In this document: positions 6,975-57,593 of the stretch, one piece after another
Layout: each line of letters starts with the position of its first letter
Numbering within the stretch: position 1 is the stretch's first letter
NCBI RefSeq assembly: GCF_044324785.1
Contig: NZ_CP172127.1
Direction: 5' to 3' (one strand)
Length of the DNA: 64,000 nucleotides
DNA from: Escherichia coli
GTDB lineage: Bacteria > Pseudomonadota > Gammaproteobacteria > Enterobacterales > Enterobacteriaceae
The notes under the pieces: generated by a model
Told to the model about the DNA's origin: nothing
Databases searched by the model: none
What the model saw: the letters and a program-made list of their open reading frames with translations, nothing else
Position numbers and translations under genes: made by a program

Positions 6975-8375
6975 TTAATCCATCTCTTCCGCTGAGGTAA
7001 TACCAGGCAGAACGTTTTCCTGTCGGTAGCCACCAGGGAGGATAATATTTAATAAAATCGCAGTTAACCCGCCAGCACAAATAGGGTTTTCAACTAGTAC
7101 ATAAATAGAGGCTGGCAATATTTTAAAAATTTCGGGATCGTAGGAGACGCCAAGCCCTAAACCTAAAGAAGTGGCGACAATAAGTGTTTCTCGGCGCTTT
7201 AAACCGTTGGTGATGATGATGCGAATCCCTGCGATGGCAATCATGGAAAACATCAACGTCATTGCGCCTCCCAGAACTGCCGAGGGAATGGTCGTGAAGA
7301 AGCCGCCAATCATCGGAAACAAACCGAGGATAACCAGCATTACCGCGATGGTTCGCCCGACATAACGTGAAGCGACGCCAGTCATCTGAATAACCCCATT
7401 ATTTTGCGCAAACGTGGTTAAGGGTAATGAACCGACAGCGGAGGCGATAACAGAAACCAGACCATCTGCCAGCACGCCGCCTTTCAGTCGGGACTGATAC
7501 TCTTCCCCCTGAATGGGGCGGCGAGAAACCATTGCCGTGGCGGTGATATCGCCGACAGCTTCCAGCACGCTAAGCAAATAAATCGTGCCAACCACCAGGA
7601 ACTGATGGAAGCTGAAACTAAACCCGTATTTGAACGGATGCGGGATGGTGATTAACGGCAAATTGCGCATACTGCTGAAATCCACCATACCCAGGCATAA
7701 CGACGCGATATAACCGACGCATAGCCCAATGGCGATCCCTCCCATGCGTAGCAACGGACTGCGACAGCAGTTAAAGCCGATCACCACAATCAAAACCAAT
7801 AAACCAACGCCGAGATGTTCGTAATTGCCGAACGTACCGCTGCTTTTGGCTGCAAATCCTCCACCAAAATCGATAATGCCGACTTTAATCAGGCTTAAGC
7901 CGATCATCAGTACCACAATACCGCTGACAGTAGGCGTAATAACCCGACGTAAATAGGGCAGGATAAAAGAAGAGCCGACAACCAGAAATGCGCCAACGAA
8001 GGAGACGCCGAAGAGCGACGACATGATTAACTCTTCGTGAAAACCGTCGCTTTTCATGCTGCTGCCCAGCGCAATCATGACCGTAACAAATGAAAAATTG
8101 ACTGACTGAATTGAGAGAAGACCAGAACCGACGATGCCGTAGCGGTTTACTTGTAACCAGGTACCAATACCAGAGGCGATCATCGCCATAGAAACCAGAT
8201 AAGCGGTTGTTTCAGCGGAAAGCTGTAAGGCCGCACCCACGATTAACGCGGGGGTTACCATCGGAACGAAAATTGCCAACAGATGGGTAATGGCACCAAC
8301 GAGAGCCTGATGAAAGGGAGGGCGATCCTCCAGTTCAAATATAAGGTCAGAACCTGCATGGTTTATATCAGACAT
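6975..8375 (-). CDS. xanQ: Xanthine permease (NCS2 family)
   Basis: ORF 6975..8588 trimmed to MSDINHAGSDLIFELEDRPPF... (466 aa) with AAGGAG RBS; multi-TM permease. Confidence 0.85.
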   Translation of the reverse strand: MSDINHAGSDLIFELEDRPPFHQALVGAITHLLAIFVPMVTPALIVGAALQLSAETTAYLVSMAMIASGIGTWLQVNRYGIVGSGLLSIQSVNFSFVTVMIALGSSMKSDGFHEELIMSSLFGVSFVGAFLVVGSSFILPYLRRVITPTVSGIVVLMIGLSLIKVGIIDFGGGFAAKSSGTFGNYEHLGVGLLVLIVVIGFNCCRSPLLRMGGIAIGLCVGYIASLCLGMVDFSSMRNLPLITIPHPFKYGFSFSFHQFLVVGTIYLLSVLEAVGDITATAMVSRRPIQGEEYQSRLKGGVLADGLVSVIASAVGSLPLTTFAQNNGVIQMTGVASRYVGRTIAVMLVILGLFPMIGGFFTTIPSAVLGGAMTLMFSMIAIAGIRIIITNGLKRRETLIVATSLGLGLGVSYDPEIFKILPASIYVLVENPICAGGLTAILLNIILPGGYRQENVLPGITSAEEMD

Positions 8376-33487: not shown

Positions 33488-33561
33488 GCGGGCGTAGTTC
33501 AATGGTAGAACGAGAGCTTCCCAAGCTCTATACGAGGGTTCGATTCCCTTCGCCCGCTCCA
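33488..33561 (+). tRNA. glyU: tRNA-Gly (anticodon CCC)
   Basis: 74-nt sequence GCGGGCGTAGTTCAATGGTAGAAC...TTCGATTCCCTTCGCCCGCTCCA with cloverleaf stems, anticodon loop cTTCCCAAg and encoded 3' CCA. Confidence 0.9.
33544..33561 (+). repeat. attL core (3' end of glyU)
   Basis: Exact 18-bp copy of the sequence at 52689-52706. Confidence 0.75.
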
Positions 33562-33725
33562 AACAAACATTTCTCAACGTCTACTGAAGTCCATCAAATC
33601 CACGAATATCAAGCCTTTCAGCCATTTTCATAGCTTATTAACGTCTACTCACAACTACCAGAATCTACACACAGAAGTGTATAGTAATGCGTATAGGACA
33701 AAATTTATTTTTTGGAGCTATACAC

Positions 33726-34940
33726 ATGCTGCTTTCAGACCTTGCTATCAGGCGCGCGAAGCCGAAAGAAAAGGCTTATACACTCAATGACGGTAACGGG
33801 CTTTCGTTACTCATTGAGCCGAACGGCTCGAAAGGGTGGCGACTACGTTACAGATTTGCAGGAAAGCCCAAAATGTTGTCGTTGGGCGTGTACCCTGATG
33901 TGTCTCTGTCTGATGCCAGAGCGGCAAGGGATGAGGCTAAAAGGCTTCTTGCTGGTGGTATAAATCCAAGTGAGGCCAGAAAAGCTCAAAAGCGAGAACA
34001 GGCGAGCAAATTTGGCAATACTTTTGAGGGTATCGCTCGCGAATGGTATGAAAAGCGGATCGACAGGTGGTCATCGTCATACGCCGAGGAAATGATCGAG
34101 ACGTTTGAAAAAGACGTTTTTCCGTACATTGGCGGCAGGCCGATCGCAGAAATTAAGCCAATGGAGTTGCTTGCGGTTCTCTCCCGTCTTAATGACCGTG
34201 GGGCGACCGAAAAATTGCGTAAGGTTCGCCAGCGATGCGGCGAGGTGTTCCGGTACGCAATCATCACCGGACGCGCTGAATATAACCCCGCACCAGATCT
34301 GGCAAGCGCATTTGCTCCACACAAAAAAGAGCATTATGCCTATTTGAAGGCCGACGAACTGCCGGAATTTTTCCGCGTTCTTAATACGTACACCGGAAGC
34401 CAGATCGTCAAGCTGGGTATGCGATTATTGATTCTGACAGGGCTCCGGCCAGGGGAATTACGACAGGCAGAATGGCAGGAGATCGATTTTGATAATCGTT
34501 TGTGGGAAGTGCCTAAAGAACGAATGAAGATGCGCCGTCCTCATTGTGTGCCGCTTTCAGAACAGGCGATCGCTATTCTGGAACAGTTAAAACACATGAC
34601 GGGGCAGTATCAGTTTATTTTCCCTGGTCGAATCCAGCACAGTAAGCCGATGAGTGAAATGGCGATGAACGTGCTTATTCGTCGTATTGGCTATTCTGGG
34701 CGCGTTACTGGTCATGGGTTCCGGCACACGATGAGCACGATTTTACATGAGCAGGGCTATAACACCGCGTGGATAGAAACGCAGCTTGCACACGTTGATA
34801 AGAACTCAATTCGTGGCACGTACAATCATGCGCAATATCTGGACGGGCGGCGCGAGATGCTCCAGTGGTACGCCGACTATATGGACTCACTGGAACAGGG
34901 CGGCAACGTGGTGCATGGCAAGTTCGGAAAATGTGGATGA
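33726..34940 (+). CDS. int: Tyrosine recombinase, P4-family integrase
   Basis: N-terminus MLLSDLAIRRAKPKEKAYTLNDGNGLSLLIEPNGSKGWRLRYRFAGKPKMLSLGVYPDVSLSDAR is the P4-type integrase arm-binding signature; C-terminal catalytic residues (R..HGFRHT..Y); ATG at 33726 with GGAG RBS preferred over the ORF-track start at 33687. Confidence 0.85.
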   Translation: MLLSDLAIRRAKPKEKAYTLNDGNGLSLLIEPNGSKGWRLRYRFAGKPKMLSLGVYPDVSLSDARAARDEAKRLLAGGINPSEARKAQKREQASKFGNTFEGIAREWYEKRIDRWSSSYAEEMIETFEKDVFPYIGGRPIAEIKPMELLAVLSRLNDRGATEKLRKVRQRCGEVFRYAIITGRAEYNPAPDLASAFAPHKKEHYAYLKADELPEFFRVLNTYTGSQIVKLGMRLLILTGLRPGELRQAEWQEIDFDNRLWEVPKERMKMRRPHCVPLSEQAIAILEQLKHMTGQYQFIFPGRIQHSKPMSEMAMNVLIRRIGYSGRVTGHGFRHTMSTILHEQGYNTAWIETQLAHVDKNSIRGTYNHAQYLDGRREMLQWYADYMDSLEQGGNVVHGKFGKCG

Positions 34941-35062
34941 CTGGTTGAGTATACAGTAGTAGACTTTGAGCGACGAAAGAAAAAGCTGTGTCTAGGGTCG
35001 CTCCCGAAAAACCGTATACCTCGACGGGCTGGCACAGCCACTACAGTAGAGGACGCTGAGGT

Positions 35063-37741: not shown

Positions 37742-37909
37742 CGATCCGAACGTTACAGAAAGAAAAAGCGCCCCGTTGCTGGATAACAGGCAAAACAAAG
37801 GCGACCGGGATAGGTCGCCAGTGGGAACAAAGGAAATCAAACGCATCGCCAACAATGCCAGATTTGCGGCTGGTGGGCAATGTGATCAGTGTGCTGGCTT
37901 GCTGGTGGG

Positions 37910-38107
37910 CTATTCCTGCTCTTTAGCATCGCCATACTGCGATGTTTTCCAGGTATGCGATCCCATTTTTGTGCGCCTGTACTCTTTTAAGAACTTCTCA
38001 AGGACAAACGCACATGGCGCAAATCTTTCCTGTTCTTGTTCGCTTACCGCATTTTTGCGTTGTTTTTTCCTGGATGAGGATAATTTCTTTAATGATTTGT
38101 CAGTCAT
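37910..38107 (-). CDS. Small hypothetical protein (paralogue of 38165..38362)
   Basis: 65-aa minus-strand ORF in a region where the overlapping plus-strand ORF looks non-coding; shares the C-terminal KEQE ending and a basic/acidic pattern with its neighbour. Confidence 0.3.
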   Translation of the reverse strand: MTDKSLKKLSSSRKKQRKNAVSEQEQERFAPCAFVLEKFLKEYRRTKMGSHTWKTSQYGDAKEQE

Positions 38108-38164
38108 CGTAGATACCTGTAACCCTGTGCGCCACAGTTCACCGCACCACGGCGCTGGTGATGG

Positions 38165-38362
38165 TTACTCCTGCTCTTTGGCCTTCCGGCGCTGTTCATA
38201 TTTTAATTTGCGTCCACAGGCATCTAAGACCCATGCGGAAAAATTAGCACTAGGATTAGTTAATTTTTCTTGTTCAACACTGGCATCAATCCCATCTATA
38301 AGCTCGTGCGGGAATCGAATATTTTTCTTTGCTGATTTGTTGTTTGTGTTTCCGCTAGACAT
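38165..38362 (-). CDS. Small hypothetical protein, candidate regulator divergent from the replication operon
   Basis: 65-aa minus-strand ORF whose 5' end abuts the operator-like palindromes at 38391-38469. Confidence 0.3.
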   Translation of the reverse strand: MSSGNTNNKSAKKNIRFPHELIDGIDASVEQEKLTNPSANFSAWVLDACGRKLKYEQRRKAKEQE

Positions 38363-38390
38363 TGGTACACCTCACTTAAATGGATTTGAT

Positions 38391-38469
38391 GGGCGCACAC
38401 AATACAGCAAAAAAAGTGAGAAGTTAAGTATTGACATGTGCGCACACATGATTTTAATCTGTGCGCACA
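38391..38469 (+). promoter_or_regulatory. Sigma70-like promoter overlapped by three GTGCGCAC palindromic operator-like sites
   Basis: -35 TTGACA (38431-38436), 16-bp spacer, -10 TTTAAT (38453-38458); palindrome GCGCACA at 38393-38399, TGTGCGCACACA within the spacer (38437-38448) and GTGCGCACA at 38461-38469. Confidence 0.45.
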
Positions 38470-38567
38470 GTTTGGGTTGCATTGCTCAAATTAAGCAACG
38501 CCCCGCAGTGCTCGCAACACATGCAGGGCGTCTAACCACCAACGATAGAAAGCGTATCGAGGTAGCT

Positions 38568-38771
38568 ATGTTAAATCATACCACACACCCGCAAGGGCGG
38601 GACTCGCACAACCTGAATAAATACATCTGGCGTTTTATCGCCCTGAGCACCGCACAACCACGCGTAATACACATCGAGGCCGCCAGCGAACAGGAAGCCC
38701 GTCAGCAATCCCCGGCTGGCTGCGTGATGGTATTTACTGCCCGCATCCGTCAGGGGGAATACTATGCGTGA
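38568..38771 (+). CDS. Small hypothetical protein (first ORF downstream of the operator-controlled promoter)
   Basis: 67 codons (MLNHTTHPQGRDSHNLNKYIWRF...) with GAGG RBS; corresponds to the only plausible coding part of ORF-track entry 37581..38771. Confidence 0.3.
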   Translation: MLNHTTHPQGRDSHNLNKYIWRFIALSTAQPRVIHIEAASEQEARQQSPAGCVMVFTARIRQGEYYA

Positions 38772-39021
38772 TGAACGATTTATTCTTCTGGAGCAAAAAT
38801 TCAGTGAAGCGCCAAAAAATGAAATTGATGCTCTTTTGCATATCGCGAATATGCTAAAAGTAGCAACGTTCCTTATAGTTTCGAATCTGGAGCATGAAAC
38901 GGCGTTAGATATACTGAACAGTGCTGTCGATTATTCTGAATATATTGCCGAGGATAAATACAGGCAATTACCAGATTTGTTAGCCCATAAATATAAAGAA
39001 GAACCTCACACCGGGAAATAA
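38764..39021 (+). CDS. Hypothetical protein
   Basis: 85-aa ORF in the same orientation and tightly packed with the replication gene. Confidence 0.4.
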   Translation: MRDERFILLEQKFSEAPKNEIDALLHIANMLKVATFLIVSNLEHETALDILNSAVDYSEYIAEDKYRQLPDLLAHKYKEEPHTGK

Positions 39022-39023
39022 AC

Positions 39024-39326
39024 ATGAAGAAGATTAAATTTACTGGCTTAAATGCCAGCGGACAGACTCACCCGAAAATCAGGATCGGGGATATTTTCCG
39101 GGATAAATATGGTGACAGCGTGGTTATTAATTCCGTGTATGAACGGCACATTACATACCGCCGCGCAGGGTACGACTATGACTGTGTGATGCCCGTTCAT
39201 CAGTTCCGGCGTGATTTTTCACTGGTATGTGCAGTACCACGCAGTAAGCCCACCAGTAAAGAGAAAGCACGGGCAAATATTCAGGTAATAAAGAACATGA
39301 TTAACGCATTCAGGGGCAAGAAATGA
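39024..39326 (+). CDS. Hypothetical protein
   Basis: 100-aa ORF; stop overlaps the start of the 708-aa replication gene (ATGA). Confidence 0.4.
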   Translation: MKKIKFTGLNASGQTHPKIRIGDIFRDKYGDSVVINSVYERHITYRRAGYDYDCVMPVHQFRRDFSLVCAVPRSKPTSKEKARANIQVIKNMINAFRGKK

Positions 39327-48273: not shown

Positions 48274-51029
48274 TGAAACAGGCATGTGTTGAAGCTATTG
48301 CGCAGACACTTGGTCGCCAGCCAAAGGCTGATGAGCTGAAAAATATCGAAGATCGTATCAAAGAAGCAGTGCAACATGTGCACAGAAAGAATGCAAAAGA
48401 AGGCAAAAGTGGTATTCCTGATGCTCAAACATACATGGATGCTGCAGAACTGGTACGCCAGCGTGTGGTTCATGATGTGTACAAGAAAAGACAGCGTGTT
48501 GCCCAGAATGCGATCGCCATCAGTAAAATTACTGACACTCTCGATGCTAACATCCCGCCTGATCAGCAGACACCTGTTAATTTGCAGCAGTTTATTTTTG
48601 CTGGCCGACGATCGAGAGACAAAGCTGATATCTCCGTTGCTTCTGCTGAAGAGCTTGCAATTGGGGCATATCAGGACTGGTCCCGTCAGCTCAGTGCTGA
48701 ACTTCTAAAAGCAGGTGATGACGTCCGCAAATTCTTCGAGCAGAGCAGGGCGCTTGGAGAGCAGCGGTTTCGGAGTGTATTCGACAGGCAGGCGGCAAAG
48801 TCTGCACAACTCCAGATCCTGAAAGAAATATATGGCGAAGATACCGGGAATCCCCTGGCGAAGAAAATTGCACAGATTTGGAAGGATGTAACAGGCCGTG
48901 TTCGTCATGAGATGAACGACAATGGCTTTGACATAGGCCTGCGAGAAGACTGGCATACGCCATATGTGGATGATGCTGACCTTATTCGCAATGCCGGGCG
49001 CGAAGAATGGCTGGCATCGTTACCAGTGGCAGAGCAAGCTACAGCACGTCTTTCAGGTCGCCAGCCACCGATTGAGTTTGCCCGCCAGAAATGGGTTGAT
49101 GACGCTTACAACACGCAGGATCGCAGCAATTACGTTAATCCTGACGGCAGCATTATGAATGACGTCGAGTACCGTCAGGCACTGGAAGCGATCTTTGAAA
49201 CGAAGGCCACTGATGGGGCAAACAAAATTGAGCCTGGTACATTTATGGGAGCCGGAGGAATAAAGAGCCGTGGTTCTCAGCACAGGGTGATGGCGTTCAA
49301 GGATGCGCAGTCACACTTCGCCTATATGGAACGATACACTCAGCAGCCGCTGGTGGGGGTGATGATGTCGCACCTGCAATCATCATCCAGGGATTTGGGC
49401 GTCGTTAAAGCCTTTGGTCCGGACGCCGAAAGAAACTTTTCCCTGGTACTGGATCGCATCTATAAGCGCGCAGTAACAGGCGGGAAACGCAAAAAAGAAA
49501 TGGAGGATGAGGCCAAATTAGTTGCCCGTATGTTCAACTCAATGGCTGGCCTAAATGGTGTCGCTTCATCGAGTGTGTTCTCTTCAGCAGTTGGTGGTCT
49601 GCGTAACCTGATGACCAGCGCCATGCTTGGCACCAGCGTACTGACAGCAACCAGCGACCAGGCAATTATGCGGGCAAATGCGCAGGCGCTGGGCTTTACC
49701 CGTGGTGGAATGCGGCTTTCCGTTAACACTATCAAAAACCTGTTTAGTGGAGATGCCAAAAAGGCGAATGCTGAACTCGGTCTGCTGGTGGATTCACATG
49801 CTGCTGTGGTTTCGAAAATGGGCGGGTTTGACTTGTCTCGCGGCATAACTGGCTGGTTCGCAGAGAAGACACTGAAGTGGTCCGGGCTGATCGCTATGGA
49901 CCGCGCAAACAAAGCGTCGTTTGGTCTCCTGATGTACAAAAACATTGGCGAGCTGACCAGAAAATTTAAGACGCTGGACGATATGAAAGGAACCGATAAA
50001 ACCATTCTGGCTAACAAGGGATGGAGCAATGAGGACTGGGCCATCATGGCAGCGGCAGAACTCAGGCCGATGACTACTGCCGGGCATATGGGGATGACGC
50101 CAGACGCGATTTACGCTGTGCCCGATAACGTAATAGCCGACATTATGGCAGACCGTATTACCCGGATTCGTGCCGGGAGTGAAAAGGCACTGGCAGCCCT
50201 TGGAGATCTCCCTCCAGAACGCCTGAAACGGATGAAAGAAGCATTCGACGCTGAGGCTGAGCAGACCATCACGCGCATGATTCGTAATGCACGCGCTGAA
50301 GCAGCCCAGAAATTGCTGGGAATTACGCACGGTGAGATGACCAATGCTGTGACCACCGCTACGGGTATTGATACATATGCCCGTGATGATGCTGGCGAGT
50401 TAATGAAGAGCTTCATGCTCTTCAAAACAACCCCATTTGCTGGATTTCGGCAACTTGTTAACAGAACACGGGATTTGGACACCGTTCCGGCCATTAAATT
50501 TCTGGCCTCATATATCGGGGGAACAACTCTTGCTGGTATGTTTGCGATCCAGATGAACAGTTTGTTAAATGGTAATGATCCGCTGGATATGACAAAACCA
50601 ACCACATGGGTTCAGGCTTTACTGAAAGGTGGTTCGTTCGGTATCTACGGTGATTTTATTTTCCAGGACCATACGCAATATGGCTCCAGAATCGGTGCCA
50701 CTATGGGTGGCCCTGTGTTGAGCTTTGCAGAGCAGTTAACAAAATTACTGATTACTAACCCACAGAAGGCTCTACAGGGTGAAGAAACATCATTCGGTGC
50801 CGATGCACTGAAAACAGCCCGCATGATCACCCCATTCGCAAACCTGTGGTATGCGAAAGCGATAACCAATCACCTGATATTGCAACAACTTCAGGAGATG
50901 GCAAACCCTGGTTACAATGATCGAGTAAGGGACCGCGCGCAACGGGAGTTCGACATAACGAGTTGGTGGGAACCGGGTGCTATTGCGCCACGTAGAGCAC
51001 CGGATTTTGGAAAGGCGGTGGGGAACTGA
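48273..51029 (+). CDS. Large hypothetical protein (918 aa), cargo operon gene 3
   Basis: ATG at 48273 overlaps the upstream stop (TAATG) with a GAGGA RBS; the ORF-track start at 48252 is a GTG in the same frame; no recognisable catalytic motif. Confidence 0.6.
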   Translation: MKQACVEAIAQTLGRQPKADELKNIEDRIKEAVQHVHRKNAKEGKSGIPDAQTYMDAAELVRQRVVHDVYKKRQRVAQNAIAISKITDTLDANIPPDQQTPVNLQQFIFAGRRSRDKADISVASAEELAIGAYQDWSRQLSAELLKAGDDVRKFFEQSRALGEQRFRSVFDRQAAKSAQLQILKEIYGEDTGNPLAKKIAQIWKDVTGRVRHEMNDNGFDIGLREDWHTPYVDDADLIRNAGREEWLASLPVAEQATARLSGRQPPIEFARQKWVDDAYNTQDRSNYVNPDGSIMNDVEYRQALEAIFETKATDGANKIEPGTFMGAGGIKSRGSQHRVMAFKDAQSHFAYMERYTQQPLVGVMMSHLQSSSRDLGVVKAFGPDAERNFSLVLDRIYKRAVTGGKRKKEMEDEAKLVARMFNSMAGLNGVASSSVFSSAVGGLRNLMTSAMLGTSVLTATSDQAIMRANAQALGFTRGGMRLSVNTIKNLFSGDAKKANAELGLLVDSHAAVVSKMGGFDLSRGITGWFAEKTLKWSGLIAMDRANKASFGLLMYKNIGELTRKFKTLDDMKGTDKTILANKGWSNEDWAIMAAAELRPMTTAGHMGMTPDAIYAVPDNVIADIMADRITRIRAGSEKALAALGDLPPERLKRMKEAFDAEAEQTITRMIRNARAEAAQKLLGITHGEMTNAVTTATGIDTYARDDAGELMKSFMLFKTTPFAGFRQLVNRTRDLDTVPAIKFLASYIGGTTLAGMFAIQMNSLLNGNDPLDMTKPTTWVQALLKGGSFGIYGDFIFQDHTQYGSRIGATMGGPVLSFAEQLTKLLITNPQKALQGEETSFGADALKTARMITPFANLWYAKAITNHLILQQLQEMANPGYNDRVRDRAQREFDITSWWEPGAIAPRRAPDFGKAVGN

Positions 51030-55139: not shown

Positions 55140-55889
55140 ATGATTGAAGAAGGGCTGTTACTTCCAATGAATGTTTTGCTTCAAGGACAGAAGTTAACCC
55201 TACTGGATCCTGAAATGTGGTTCTTACGGGGAAATGAAAACAAGGATGTAACCCTTGTTATTACGATTGGTAATAACCATCAAAAATTAATGGTAGTGGA
55301 AGACATATTACTGCTCATTGACCGAAGCCAAATTGAGGTAACTGCAGGGAAAGTAATTTATCATCCACTTCGCATTGATATCCTGAGTAAATTATTAGCT
55401 TTTATAGATGAATCAACGGGGAGTGTGGAAAGGGAACACCATGAGTTGTTTGCTGATGCCTTGCCCTTTGCATCAGAAGTTGTGCTATTCAGTAAAGTTG
55501 CAAGTGAAGCCTGGTTTTTAGCCACTTATCTGAGCAGCGATAATATTAATGAAATTCTGTTTCAGCATCTAAGAAAAACAGAATGCTATAAACTGGTTCG
55601 CTATTTATTATCGCAATCGCTCATACAGACTTCACTCTATGATCTTGGTGAGCTTTACGGCGTATCGTATTCACATTTTCGCCGTTTATGTAGTTATGCA
55701 TTGGGTGGTAAAGTTAAAACGGAATTATGTGGCTGGAGAGTTGCCAGAGCCGTGTTGGAAATCATTGAAGGAAACAGTGATATGACAACAATTGCGCATA
55801 AATATGGCTACTCATCCTCATCACACTTTTCAGCCGAAGTAAAAAGCCGGTTAGGAAAAACACCGAGAGAACTATGTAAAAAGTTATGA
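55140..55889 (+). CDS. eivF: AraC-family T3SS transcriptional activator (InvF homologue)
   Basis: 249 aa; C-terminal AraC-type HTH (SYSHFRRLC...IAHKYGYSSSSHFSAEVKSRLGKTP); first gene of an inv-like operon; AT-rich. Confidence 0.8.
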   Translation: MIEEGLLLPMNVLLQGQKLTLLDPEMWFLRGNENKDVTLVITIGNNHQKLMVVEDILLLIDRSQIEVTAGKVIYHPLRIDILSKLLAFIDESTGSVEREHHELFADALPFASEVVLFSKVASEAWFLATYLSSDNINEILFQHLRKTECYKLVRYLLSQSLIQTSLYDLGELYGVSYSHFRRLCSYALGGKVKTELCGWRVARAVLEIIEGNSDMTTIAHKYGYSSSSHFSAEVKSRLGKTPRELCKKL

Positions 55890-57589
55890 AAATAAAATTA
55901 TGCATTACTATTATATTAATTTCAGCCTTATGCATTTTTAATGGATTATTGACTCCTGGTGCATATGCCGCAACAGCGAATGGATACGTAGCAAATAAAG
56001 AAAATCTACGTAGTTTTTTTGAAACGGTTTCATCATATGCGGGTAAGCCTACAATAGTAAGTAAGCTTGCCATGAAGAAACAGATCAGCGGAAATTTTGA
56101 TTTAACCGAACCCTATGCCTTGATTGAACGCCTGTCGGCGCAGATGGGACTTATTTGGTATGATGATGGCAAAGCTATTTATATCTATGACTCATCAGAG
56201 ATGCGTAATGCTCTGATTAATCTGAGAAAGGTATCGACTAATGAGTTTAATAATTTCTTAAAAAAATCGGGTCTGTATAACTCTCGTTATGAAATTAAAG
56301 GGGGCGGCAATGGTACTTTCTATGTATCGGGGCCACCGGTTTATGTTGACCTGGTCGTTAATGCTGCGAAATTAATGGAGCAAAACAGCGATGGCATCGA
56401 GATCGGACGCAATAAAGTAGGGATTATTCACCTGGTCAACACATTCGTTAATGATCGGACTTATGAATTACGTGGCGAAAAGATAGTTATTCCTGGCATG
56501 GCAAAAGTACTATCAACATTGTTAAATAATAACATTAAGCAAAGCACAGGGGTGAACGTACTTTCTGAAATTTCAAGTCGTCAACAACTAAAAAACGTAT
56601 CACGTATGCCTCCTTTTCCTGGTGCTGAAGAAGATGATGACCTACAAGTAGAGAAAATAATATCGACAGCTGGAGCGCCAGAGACTGACGATATACAAAT
56701 TATTGCATATCCTGATACCAACAGTTTACTTGTTAAAGGAACAGTATCTCAGGTTGATTTTATCGAGAAGTTAGTAGCTACGCTCGATATTCCAAAGCGA
56801 CATATTGAATTATCTTTATGGATAATAGATATTGATAAGACTGATCTAGAACAGTTAGGAGCTGACTGGTCGGGCACGATAAAAATTGGATCCAGCCTAA
56901 GTGCATCATTTAATAATTCAGGTTCAATTAGTACCCTGGATGGGACACAGTTTATTGCAACAATACAGGCACTTGCGCAAAAAAGAAGAGCCGCCGTTGT
57001 TGCTCGTCCTGTCGTTTTAACACAGGAGAATATTCCTGCTATATTTGATAATAACCGTACTTTCTATACTAAATTAGTCGGCGAGCGTACTGCGGAGTTG
57101 GATGAAGTAACCTATGGTACGATGATTAGCGTGCTACCACGATTTGCTTCGCGAAATCAAATTGAATTACTCTTGAATATTGAAGATGGCAATGAAATCA
57201 ATTCCGACAAGACCAATGTTGATGATCTGCCTCAGGTTGGTAGAACGCTAATAAGTACTATTGCGCGCGTGCCTCAAGGGAAAAGTCTTTTGATTGGTGG
57301 ATATACACGAGATACGAATACCTATGAAAGTCGCAAGATCCCAATATTAGGCAGTATTCCATTTATTGGTAAATTATTTGGATATGAAGGAACAAATGCG
57401 AATAACATCGTTCGTGTCTTTCTTATTGAGCCAAGAGAGATCGATGAGCGCATGATGAATAATGCGAATGAGGCTGCGGTTGACGCCAGAGCAATAACAC
57501 AGCAAATGGCAAAAAATAAAGAAATCAACGATGAATTACTGCAGAAATGGATAAAAACTTACCTGAATCGTGAAGTCGTCGGAGGATAG
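55886..57589 (+). CDS. eivG: T3SS outer-membrane secretin (InvG/SctC homologue)
   Basis: 567 aa; signal peptide; long collinear similarity to Salmonella InvG (e.g. LIWYDDGKAIYIYDSSEMRNA, GTFYVSGPPVYVDLVVNAA); ATGA overlap with eivF. Confidence 0.85.
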   Translation: MKIKLCITIILISALCIFNGLLTPGAYAATANGYVANKENLRSFFETVSSYAGKPTIVSKLAMKKQISGNFDLTEPYALIERLSAQMGLIWYDDGKAIYIYDSSEMRNALINLRKVSTNEFNNFLKKSGLYNSRYEIKGGGNGTFYVSGPPVYVDLVVNAAKLMEQNSDGIEIGRNKVGIIHLVNTFVNDRTYELRGEKIVIPGMAKVLSTLLNNNIKQSTGVNVLSEISSRQQLKNVSRMPPFPGAEEDDDLQVEKIISTAGAPETDDIQIIAYPDTNSLLVKGTVSQVDFIEKLVATLDIPKRHIELSLWIIDIDKTDLEQLGADWSGTIKIGSSLSASFNNSGSISTLDGTQFIATIQALAQKRRAAVVARPVVLTQENIPAIFDNNRTFYTKLVGERTAELDEVTYGTMISVLPRFASRNQIELLLNIEDGNEINSDKTNVDDLPQVGRTLISTIARVPQGKSLLIGGYTRDTNTYESRKIPILGSIPFIGKLFGYEGTNANNIVRVFLIEPREIDERMMNNANEAAVDARAITQQMAKNKEINDELLQKWIKTYLNREVVGG

Positions 57590-57593
57590 TGAA

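Follow-up and report, generated by a model that had tools for sequence, protein, structure and literature searches.

A 206-bp divergent control region in a satellite-like island of Escherichia coli probably houses an exchangeable, autoregulated repressor-operator cassette, in which a small protein of the YlcI/YnfO family with a predicted ribbon-helix-helix (RHH) fold would gate the replication operon of the element. We arrived at this reading by comparing the region with its relatives at the nucleotide and protein level. The intergenic gap separates a leftward gene of 65 aa from a rightward operon in a window of 64,000 nucleotides (the whole stretch of DNA that was analysed), and its features are as follows.

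37910–38107, minus strand: second small ORF, 65 aa, phrog_21027, downstream of ylcI; an accessory gene
38165–38362, minus strand: ylcI-family gene, 65 aa, WP_000094456.1; candidate ribbon-helix-helix repressor
38389–38400: O1, ATGGGCGCACAC, imperfect copy of the operator, positioned on the -10/+1 of the ylcI promoter (leftward)
38399–38404, minus strand: probable -10 of the ylcI promoter, TATTGT (plus strand ACAATA), overlapping O1 by 2 nt
38422–38427, minus strand: possible -35 of the ylcI promoter, TTAACT, read from the sequence, with a 17-bp spacer and 3 bp from the -35 of P_R
38431–38436, plus strand: -35 of the rightward promoter P_R, TTGACA, read from the sequence
38436–38447: O2, ATGTGCGCACAC, core palindrome at 38437–38446; begins at the last -35 base and fills the promoter spacer
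38453–38458, plus strand: alternative -10 of P_R, TTTAAT, with a 16-bp spacer; the choice of the original prediction
38455–38460, plus strand: probable -10 of P_R, TAATCT, with an 18-bp spacer; register conserved among classes
38459–38470: O3, CTGTGCGCACAG, core palindrome at 38460–38469; shares 2 nt with the end of the -10 and covers the predicted rightward +1
38469–38492, plus strand: 5'-proximal hairpin of the predicted P_R transcript (fold prediction)
38498–38563, plus strand: conserved structured leader, made up of hairpin 1 (38498–38531), a single-stranded TCTAACCAC motif and hairpin 2 (38543–38559)
38568–38771, plus strand: Icd-like gene, first of the operon (RefSeq annotation; NF033153, 68.6 bits)
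38764–41449, plus strand: rest of the operon, with a hypothetical gene, a DUF4222 gene and a DUF927 primase/helicase gene (39323–41449)

Palindromic sites and putative promoters of the control region

The original prediction had placed a perfect 8-bp palindrome within the spacer of the rightward promoter, which we confirmed: GTGCGCAC occurs exactly at 38438–38445 and again at 38461–38468, in both cases at the core of the perfect 10-bp palindrome TGTGCGCACA (38437–38446 and 38460–38469). With regard to the additional copies that had been described, the downstream one is exact and lies 23 bp away (O2 to O3, centre to centre), whereas the upstream one, reported as 40 bp distant, is centred 47 bp upstream of O2 and its core (38390–38399), GGGCGCAC, carries one mismatch to TGTGCGCACA; moreover, this imperfect copy appears to serve the leftward promoter. 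The raw number of GTGCGCAC copies in the 64 kb is ordinary, at two versus 1.5 expected, and it is the local clustering that is unusual, this being the sole palindromic 8-mer or 10-mer that recurs within 100 bp in the whole window. Dinucleotide-preserving shuffles of the 206-bp intergenic region yielded two copies of a palindromic 10-mer in 0 of 20,000 cases and two copies of a palindromic 8-mer in 63 of 20,000, while matches with at most two mismatches were rarer elsewhere in the window than expected by chance (16 versus 36.9). A conserved GC-rich stem-loop between ylcI and the second small ORF (38108–38164) contains CTGTGCGCCACAG, which corresponds to O3 with a one-base insertion; this similarity is absent in the L017 variant from E. 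coli and is probably coincidental.

Read from the sequence, P_R combines a consensus -35 element with a weak -10 and a long spacer. It had been described as a strong promoter of the form TTGACA-16 bp-TTTAAT, and both hexamers are literally present, matching the consensus at six of six and five of six positions, respectively, the latter without the A at position 2. The epithet is not supported by a consensus promoter scan, which called no promoter at P_R, and the -10 is probably TAATCT (3/6, 18-bp spacer) rather than TTTAAT, given its register homology with the -10 elements of other operator classes. Over 13 classes this register reads T-A-n-n-n-T, with T1 found in 12 and A2 and T6 in all 13; the equivalents include TATGGT, TAAGGT, TATCCT and CATACT, at a spacer length of 18 bp, or 17 bp in Klebsiella. 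The -35 position is occupied by TTGAC(A/G/T) or TTGAAG in nearly every related locus and by CTGAAG in one. On the ylcI side, other classes have TATAGT, TATGGT, TAAGGT or TATACT fused to O1 at the position of the -10, and Rahnella keeps ACAATA or ACGATA there; the possible -35, TTAACT, is weak and poorly conserved.

Public annotation often stretches the coding sequence of the Icd-like (or a hypothetical) protein leftward over the whole operator/promoter region, as in loci L003 (1947–2351), L004 (1892–2263) and L060 (6997–7971), and also in H72 and H74, two matches to the class-A control region. In the element vB_KppS-Ant, the over-extended coding sequence hides the ylcI gene entirely.

Operator classes and the protein that tracks them

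An exact 28-mer from the conserved leader retrieved 55 IMG/VR contigs, in which the ~200 bp upstream of the leader comprised at least eight unrelated cassettes, all of which combine a small divergent gene and a TTGACA-like -35 with a repeated palindrome of their own at matching positions. A protein-based scan of one genome per species contributed 19 further loci, from Serratia, Rahnella, Pectobacterium, Klebsiella, Xenorhabdus, Brenneria, Affinibrenneria, Proteus and Gilliamella, and a shared layout was found in 33 distinct loci from E. coli and these nine scanned genera. In the related loci, the last base of TTGAC(N) is also the first of O2, and the first bases of O3 are fused to the T-A-n-n-n-T hexamer; where the sites are 12 bp long, the distance between the two is 23 bp in nearly every class. 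O1 lies 44–47 bp upstream of O2 in most classes, in a mirror-image fusion to an opposite-strand hexamer of the TAnnGT/TATTGT type; Pectobacterium L065 has no clear O1. At least 12 operator classes repeat this geometry while differing by lineage in the sites themselves, which are 11–12-bp pseudo-palindromes of the form (G/A)TGT-nnnn-ACA(C). At the centre of the site, the window and Rahnella have GCGC, and Serratia, Brenneria and some Pectobacterium loci have ATAT or ATGT; Xenorhabdus L076 has TTGT, some other Xenorhabdus loci have TTAA, and the O2 of Klebsiella has ACCC (GTGTACCCCCAC), among other variants.

Comparison of the window with Rahnella gave 87–89% identity in the operator/promoter elements versus 49–53% in the remaining intergenic region. 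O2 and O3 are each identical in sequence between the two; O2 in particular agrees at 12 of 12 positions among the window, E. coli L017 and both Rahnella loci, with one difference in Pectobacterium L065, and O1 takes the form of the perfect TGTGCGCACA in Rahnella L063 and L064. The proposal that these are operator sites on a divergent control region ahead of the replication operon of a mobile element is thus supported by the footprint, the recurring geometry and the concerted change of the sites.

Two natural variants of class A alter the spacing of the sites. In L023 (~7256–7366, minus strand), a 23-bp tandem duplication adds an extra operator and -10, and in L038 a 23-bp deletion fuses O2 with O3 and removes the -10, both of which are consistent with recombination between direct operator repeats. 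Such variants, together with a terminator scan that flags 38435–38450 followed by ATTTTAAT, could be taken to mean that the palindromes act as nucleic-acid structures, either with O2 as the hairpin of a T-run terminator for read-in transcription from alpA/Bro, or as cruciform or recombination sites. We consider this very improbable: the stem has only 6 pairs and the T-tract is weak, the T-run after O2 is absent in other classes, and the duplication and deletion follow from the direct repeats rather than pointing to a function. A structural role would also leave the three copies, their promoter-locked register and their concerted lineage-specific change unexplained.

If the palindromes are instead protein-binding sites, their sequences should be read against those of the candidate binders. 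Within a locus, O2 and O3 share 10.6 of 12 positions; loci from different genera that carry the same N-terminal arm of YlcI agree at 10.1 of 12 operator positions, compared to 7.45 of 12 for loci with different arms, and the observed association was not reached in any of 20,000 permutations. The reverse search, in which the operator pair alone was matched against IMG/VR, returned 19 loci with a 13-nt gap between the copies. Fourteen of these belong to the already-known class A, with the gene shown in 7 of them, and one is cut by a contig end; among the 4 checkable loci in a new context (L085, L086, L087 and L091), all 4 have an adjacent YlcI gene. Four operator-pair matches with other gap lengths lie in unrelated contexts. 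The divergently encoded YlcI/YnfO protein is therefore a strong candidate, from sequence comparison, for the repressor that the original prediction had left unnamed. The covariation of ylcI with the operators could partly reflect physical linkage within one recombining cassette, and there is no evident simple recognition code: the arm of Proteus L075 (SEKKN-IRF) resembles that of the window (SAKKN-IRF), yet their operators differ.

A binder other than YlcI, be it AlpA, the Icd-like protein, a helper-phage repressor or a host factor, with YlcI acting elsewhere, appears unlikely. AlpA is a known regulator of Gram-negative phage-inducible chromosomal islands (PICIs; PMC6092414), and in PHROGs the Icd-like families phrog_6196 and phrog_1743 carry the label 'transcriptional repressor'. 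Nonetheless, the class of operator changes with the N-terminal variant of YlcI across genera, and an operator pair with a 23-bp period was found beside ylcI wherever we checked. In an island whose YlcI and operators are identical to those studied here, AlpA is only 30% identical and the primase belongs to a different family; AlpA was rejected as the operator binder because it does not covary with the operators. The Icd-like gene and the leader are ~90% identical across classes with unrelated operators, and this conservation led us to reject the Icd-like protein as well.

The variable part of the cassette, ~400 bp in length, consists of the N-terminal ~50 codons of ylcI plus the operators, and is flanked in E. 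coli by the conserved 3' end of ylcI (...QRRKAKEQE) and the leader hairpin. Such boundaries would be expected if specificity modules were exchanged by recombination. In cassettes F, G and H, ylcI is replaced by other small RHH-like genes, with their own repeated palindromes at the matching promoter. The start codon of the RHH-like gene in loci of these three cassettes (L007, L028, L031 and L036) is the CAT inside the TTGACAT of the -35, so the two promoters must overlap face to face. When the ylcI-operator-leader segment was compared at the DNA level with 50,697 phage genomes, no match was returned.

YlcI/YnfO and a proposed mechanism of repression

The product of the leftward gene is a member of the YlcI/YnfO (DUF3950) family by profile match, scoring 59 bits against NCBIfam NF041551 (cut-off 30), in agreement with its RefSeq name, and E=1.6e-6 against Pfam DUF3950 (PF13132). 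In its structural model, an N-terminal strand followed by two helices is superimposable on RHH proteins, on which basis YlcI is predicted to belong to the RHH fold class. An AF2 model of a linker-fused tandem of YlcI had no DSSP-assigned beta-ribbon (pTM 0.62, pLDDT 68) and was uninformative. Foldseek comparison of YlcI with the PDB gave nothing significant, the top match being the RHH protein ParB of pCXC100, and a profile-based sequence search of the PDB gave no meaningful or significant match to solved structures.

That top match, although not significant, and the fact that RHH proteins include partition and centromere binders, along with the repetition of the sites, would suit a different role for YlcI: it may bind mainly as an activator, as a centromere-type or copy-control RHH protein in the manner of ParG or omega, or at origin iterons. 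We judge this quite unlikely, since the position of the sites relative to the -35 and -10 elements of two promoters is constant in every lineage, with O3 on the -10/+1, and since there are only three sites, with no longer array and no further copies in the window.

Repression is the preferred role of YlcI at sites that are repeated, conserved and overlap core promoter elements. In the mechanism that we propose, the candidate operators O1 to O3 would be bound by divergently encoded YlcI/YnfO dimers or higher oligomers. Occupancy of O2 and O3 would occlude the -35/spacer and the -10/+1 of P_R and block RNA polymerase, leaving the leader, the Icd-like gene, the DUF4222 gene and the DUF927 primase-helicase, and thus the replication module, silent. 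As O1 covers the -10/+1 of the leftward promoter, YlcI would also limit its own synthesis, providing autoregulation. Swapping of the cassette between satellites would confer different 'immunity' specificities, and candidates for lifting the repression are a helper-phage factor or read-in transcription from the convergent alpA operon.

Both minus-strand small ORFs that had been pointed out as transcribed away from P_R are present, but only ylcI is conserved with the module outside E. coli. The second ORF is kept after ylcI in E. coli classes A–E and is absent from JNE141411, where YlcI is identical, and from other genera; no conserved gene was found downstream of ylcI in 13 loci from other genera. 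An assignment of YlcI as the RHH antitoxin of a type II toxin-antitoxin system was rejected, as there is no conserved co-transcribed toxin partner and ylcI is monocistronic in other genera.

The family also occurs in phages. Phage lambda (J02459, our locus L080) has an unannotated 64-aa YlcI/YnfO ORF at 48112–48303 on the minus strand (L080 1813–2004), ~200 bp from cos, which scores 37.6 bits against NF041551 and is 43% identical to the window protein, and Stx phages also carry the family. No GTGT...ACAC repeats were found upstream of the lambda homologue, which indicates a different context for this copy.

Several characterized systems resemble the proposed switch in part. In the immI region of phage P22, the RHH repressors Mnt and Arc act at the divergent promoters P_ant and P_mnt. 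The present locus would likewise hold an RHH repressor switch at divergent promoters, by predicted fold similarity, but YlcI has no detectable sequence homology to the P22 proteins, the controlled unit is a satellite replication module instead of an antirepressor, and there are three dispersed 12-bp sites (47-bp and 23-bp spacing) in a cassette that is swapped among many specificities. CopG of pMV158 and omega of pSM19035 are RHH repressors acting on replication operons, a type of control that we predict for YlcI. In contrast to these proteins and to RHH antitoxins, YlcI is a DUF3950 protein with no significant match to solved structures, resides on an integrated phage satellite, and is encoded divergently from the controlled operon rather than within it, without a toxin partner.

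The RNA-based immunity systems of P1 (immI, with c4 RNA, icd and ant) and P4 (CI RNA) share with the present locus an Icd-like gene (NF033153) at the head of the operon, a structured leader, and AntA/B and Bro-N genes nearby. They differ in that no C4 or isrK Rfam match was found here: none in the 64 kb at the gathering threshold, nor in 37800–39400 even at E<=10. To our knowledge, a protein-operator layer of the kind that we propose for this locus is no part of the P1 or P4 systems. Membership in the P1 c4/P4 CI group was rejected, as these searches found no C4- or isrK-type RNA upstream of the Icd-like gene; for this group as for toxin-antitoxin systems, the defining features were looked for and not found. 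We also know of no Stl or Rpr repressor that is an RHH protein. Stl and Rpr, from SaPIs and Gram-positive PICIs (PMC6092414, which gives no fold for either), are comparable in having the repressor gene divergent from the replication operon and in keeping the island quiescent.

The island, its leader RNA and biological meaning

The window is chromosomal DNA of E. coli and, over a query of 1.4 kb, 100% identical to strain SCU-105. The island is located at a tRNA-Gly gene (33488–33558), with an integrase gene at 33687–34940, followed by genes for an AlpA-like HTH protein, AntA/B and Bro-N, and then the Icd-like, DUF4222, DUF927 primase and SSB genes. An int-alpA RNA motif (RF02996, 46.9 bits) lies at 34985–35052 between the integrase and the next gene, and the order int-alpA, Bro, replication has been described for Gram-negative PICIs (PMC10111431). 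With an integrase at the att site, an alpA-type regulator and a replication module, the gene order is that of a PICI-like phage satellite. No capsid or packaging genes were recognised in the island. Three large consecutive ORFs of 843, 686 and 925 aa (43682–51029, plus strand), to which RefSeq adds a fourth of ~104 aa, are annotated as hypothetical and gave no PADLOC or NCBIfam match; they may form an uncharacterised cargo or defence operon. The 25-nt repeat of the tRNA 3' end that would mark attR was not found, so the right end of the island (~52 kb, before ETT2) is approximate. Type III secretion genes of ETT2 (sctC, a gatekeeper gene, a sctV-like gene, sctN and others; 55140–63417) flank the island on the right, such that the glyU locus holds both ETT2 and a satellite-like island.

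The leader/Icd-like segment is present in 1352 of 5426 complete E. coli genomes (about a quarter), and the class-A control region in 67 genomes, once each. Identical YlcI and operators occur in a cf-PICI-like island of O157:H7 that encodes a capsid, a protease and a portal protein, a class-E module in an island of Nissle 1917 with a capsid gene, and a Klebsiella-type module in the induced 16.5-kb element vB_KppS-Ant.

Downstream of the operators, the leader appears to be a conserved RNA structure. Aligning 15 sequences from 9 genera gave 95.9% paired cells and compensatory changes in 10 of the 18 pairs, compared to 0–2 in slid controls; the fold z-score is -2.0. Hairpin 2 adjoins the Shine-Dalgarno sequence, the leader also includes a CCA:UGG pairing to the start codon, and CCTTG...CAAGG hairpins similar to the 5'-proximal one follow O3 in other classes, as judged by eye. 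Rfam holds no known family for the control region or the leader, the only hit being a sub-threshold match to R1162 antisense (18 bits versus a gathering threshold of 55). The covarying leader suggests a second, post-transcriptional layer of control, and might act in the control of translation or be targeted by the island's ProQ/FinO protein, whose gene, like that of SSB, follows the DUF927 primase/helicase.

Induction of Gram-negative PICIs needs AlpA and a helper phage (PMC6092414; 10.1101/2022.09.08.507074). [quoted passage not shown] Our literature search on YlcI, YnfO, DUF3950, Icd-like proteins and PICI or cf-PICI repressors found no description of the module, and a paper on the AlpA antiterminator of P. 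aeruginosa makes no link to the AlpA of E. coli or of PICIs.

By extension, and as a more tentative proposal that we hold to be possible but rather doubtful, YlcI/YnfO proteins may be the missing master repressors of Gram-negative PICIs and cf-PICIs, with swappable immunity cassettes, helper-linked induction and the leader RNA as a second gate. The lambda/Stx paralogue near cos might then poison or compete with the satellite repressor or, alternatively, AlpA-driven convergent transcription through ylcI might lift the repression; the cassettes would define satellite immunity groups, and the covarying leader would add a post-transcriptional gate.

The 65-aa protein and its three 12-bp sites provide a testable candidate for the repressor of Gram-negative PICIs. 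If true, this would be the first functional assignment for DUF3950, a family that includes ylcI and ynfO of E. coli K-12 as well as the ORF that lies unannotated at the right end of lambda. The 12 or more natural operator/repressor pairs on one scaffold would be useful for the study of RHH specificity and for orthogonal switches.
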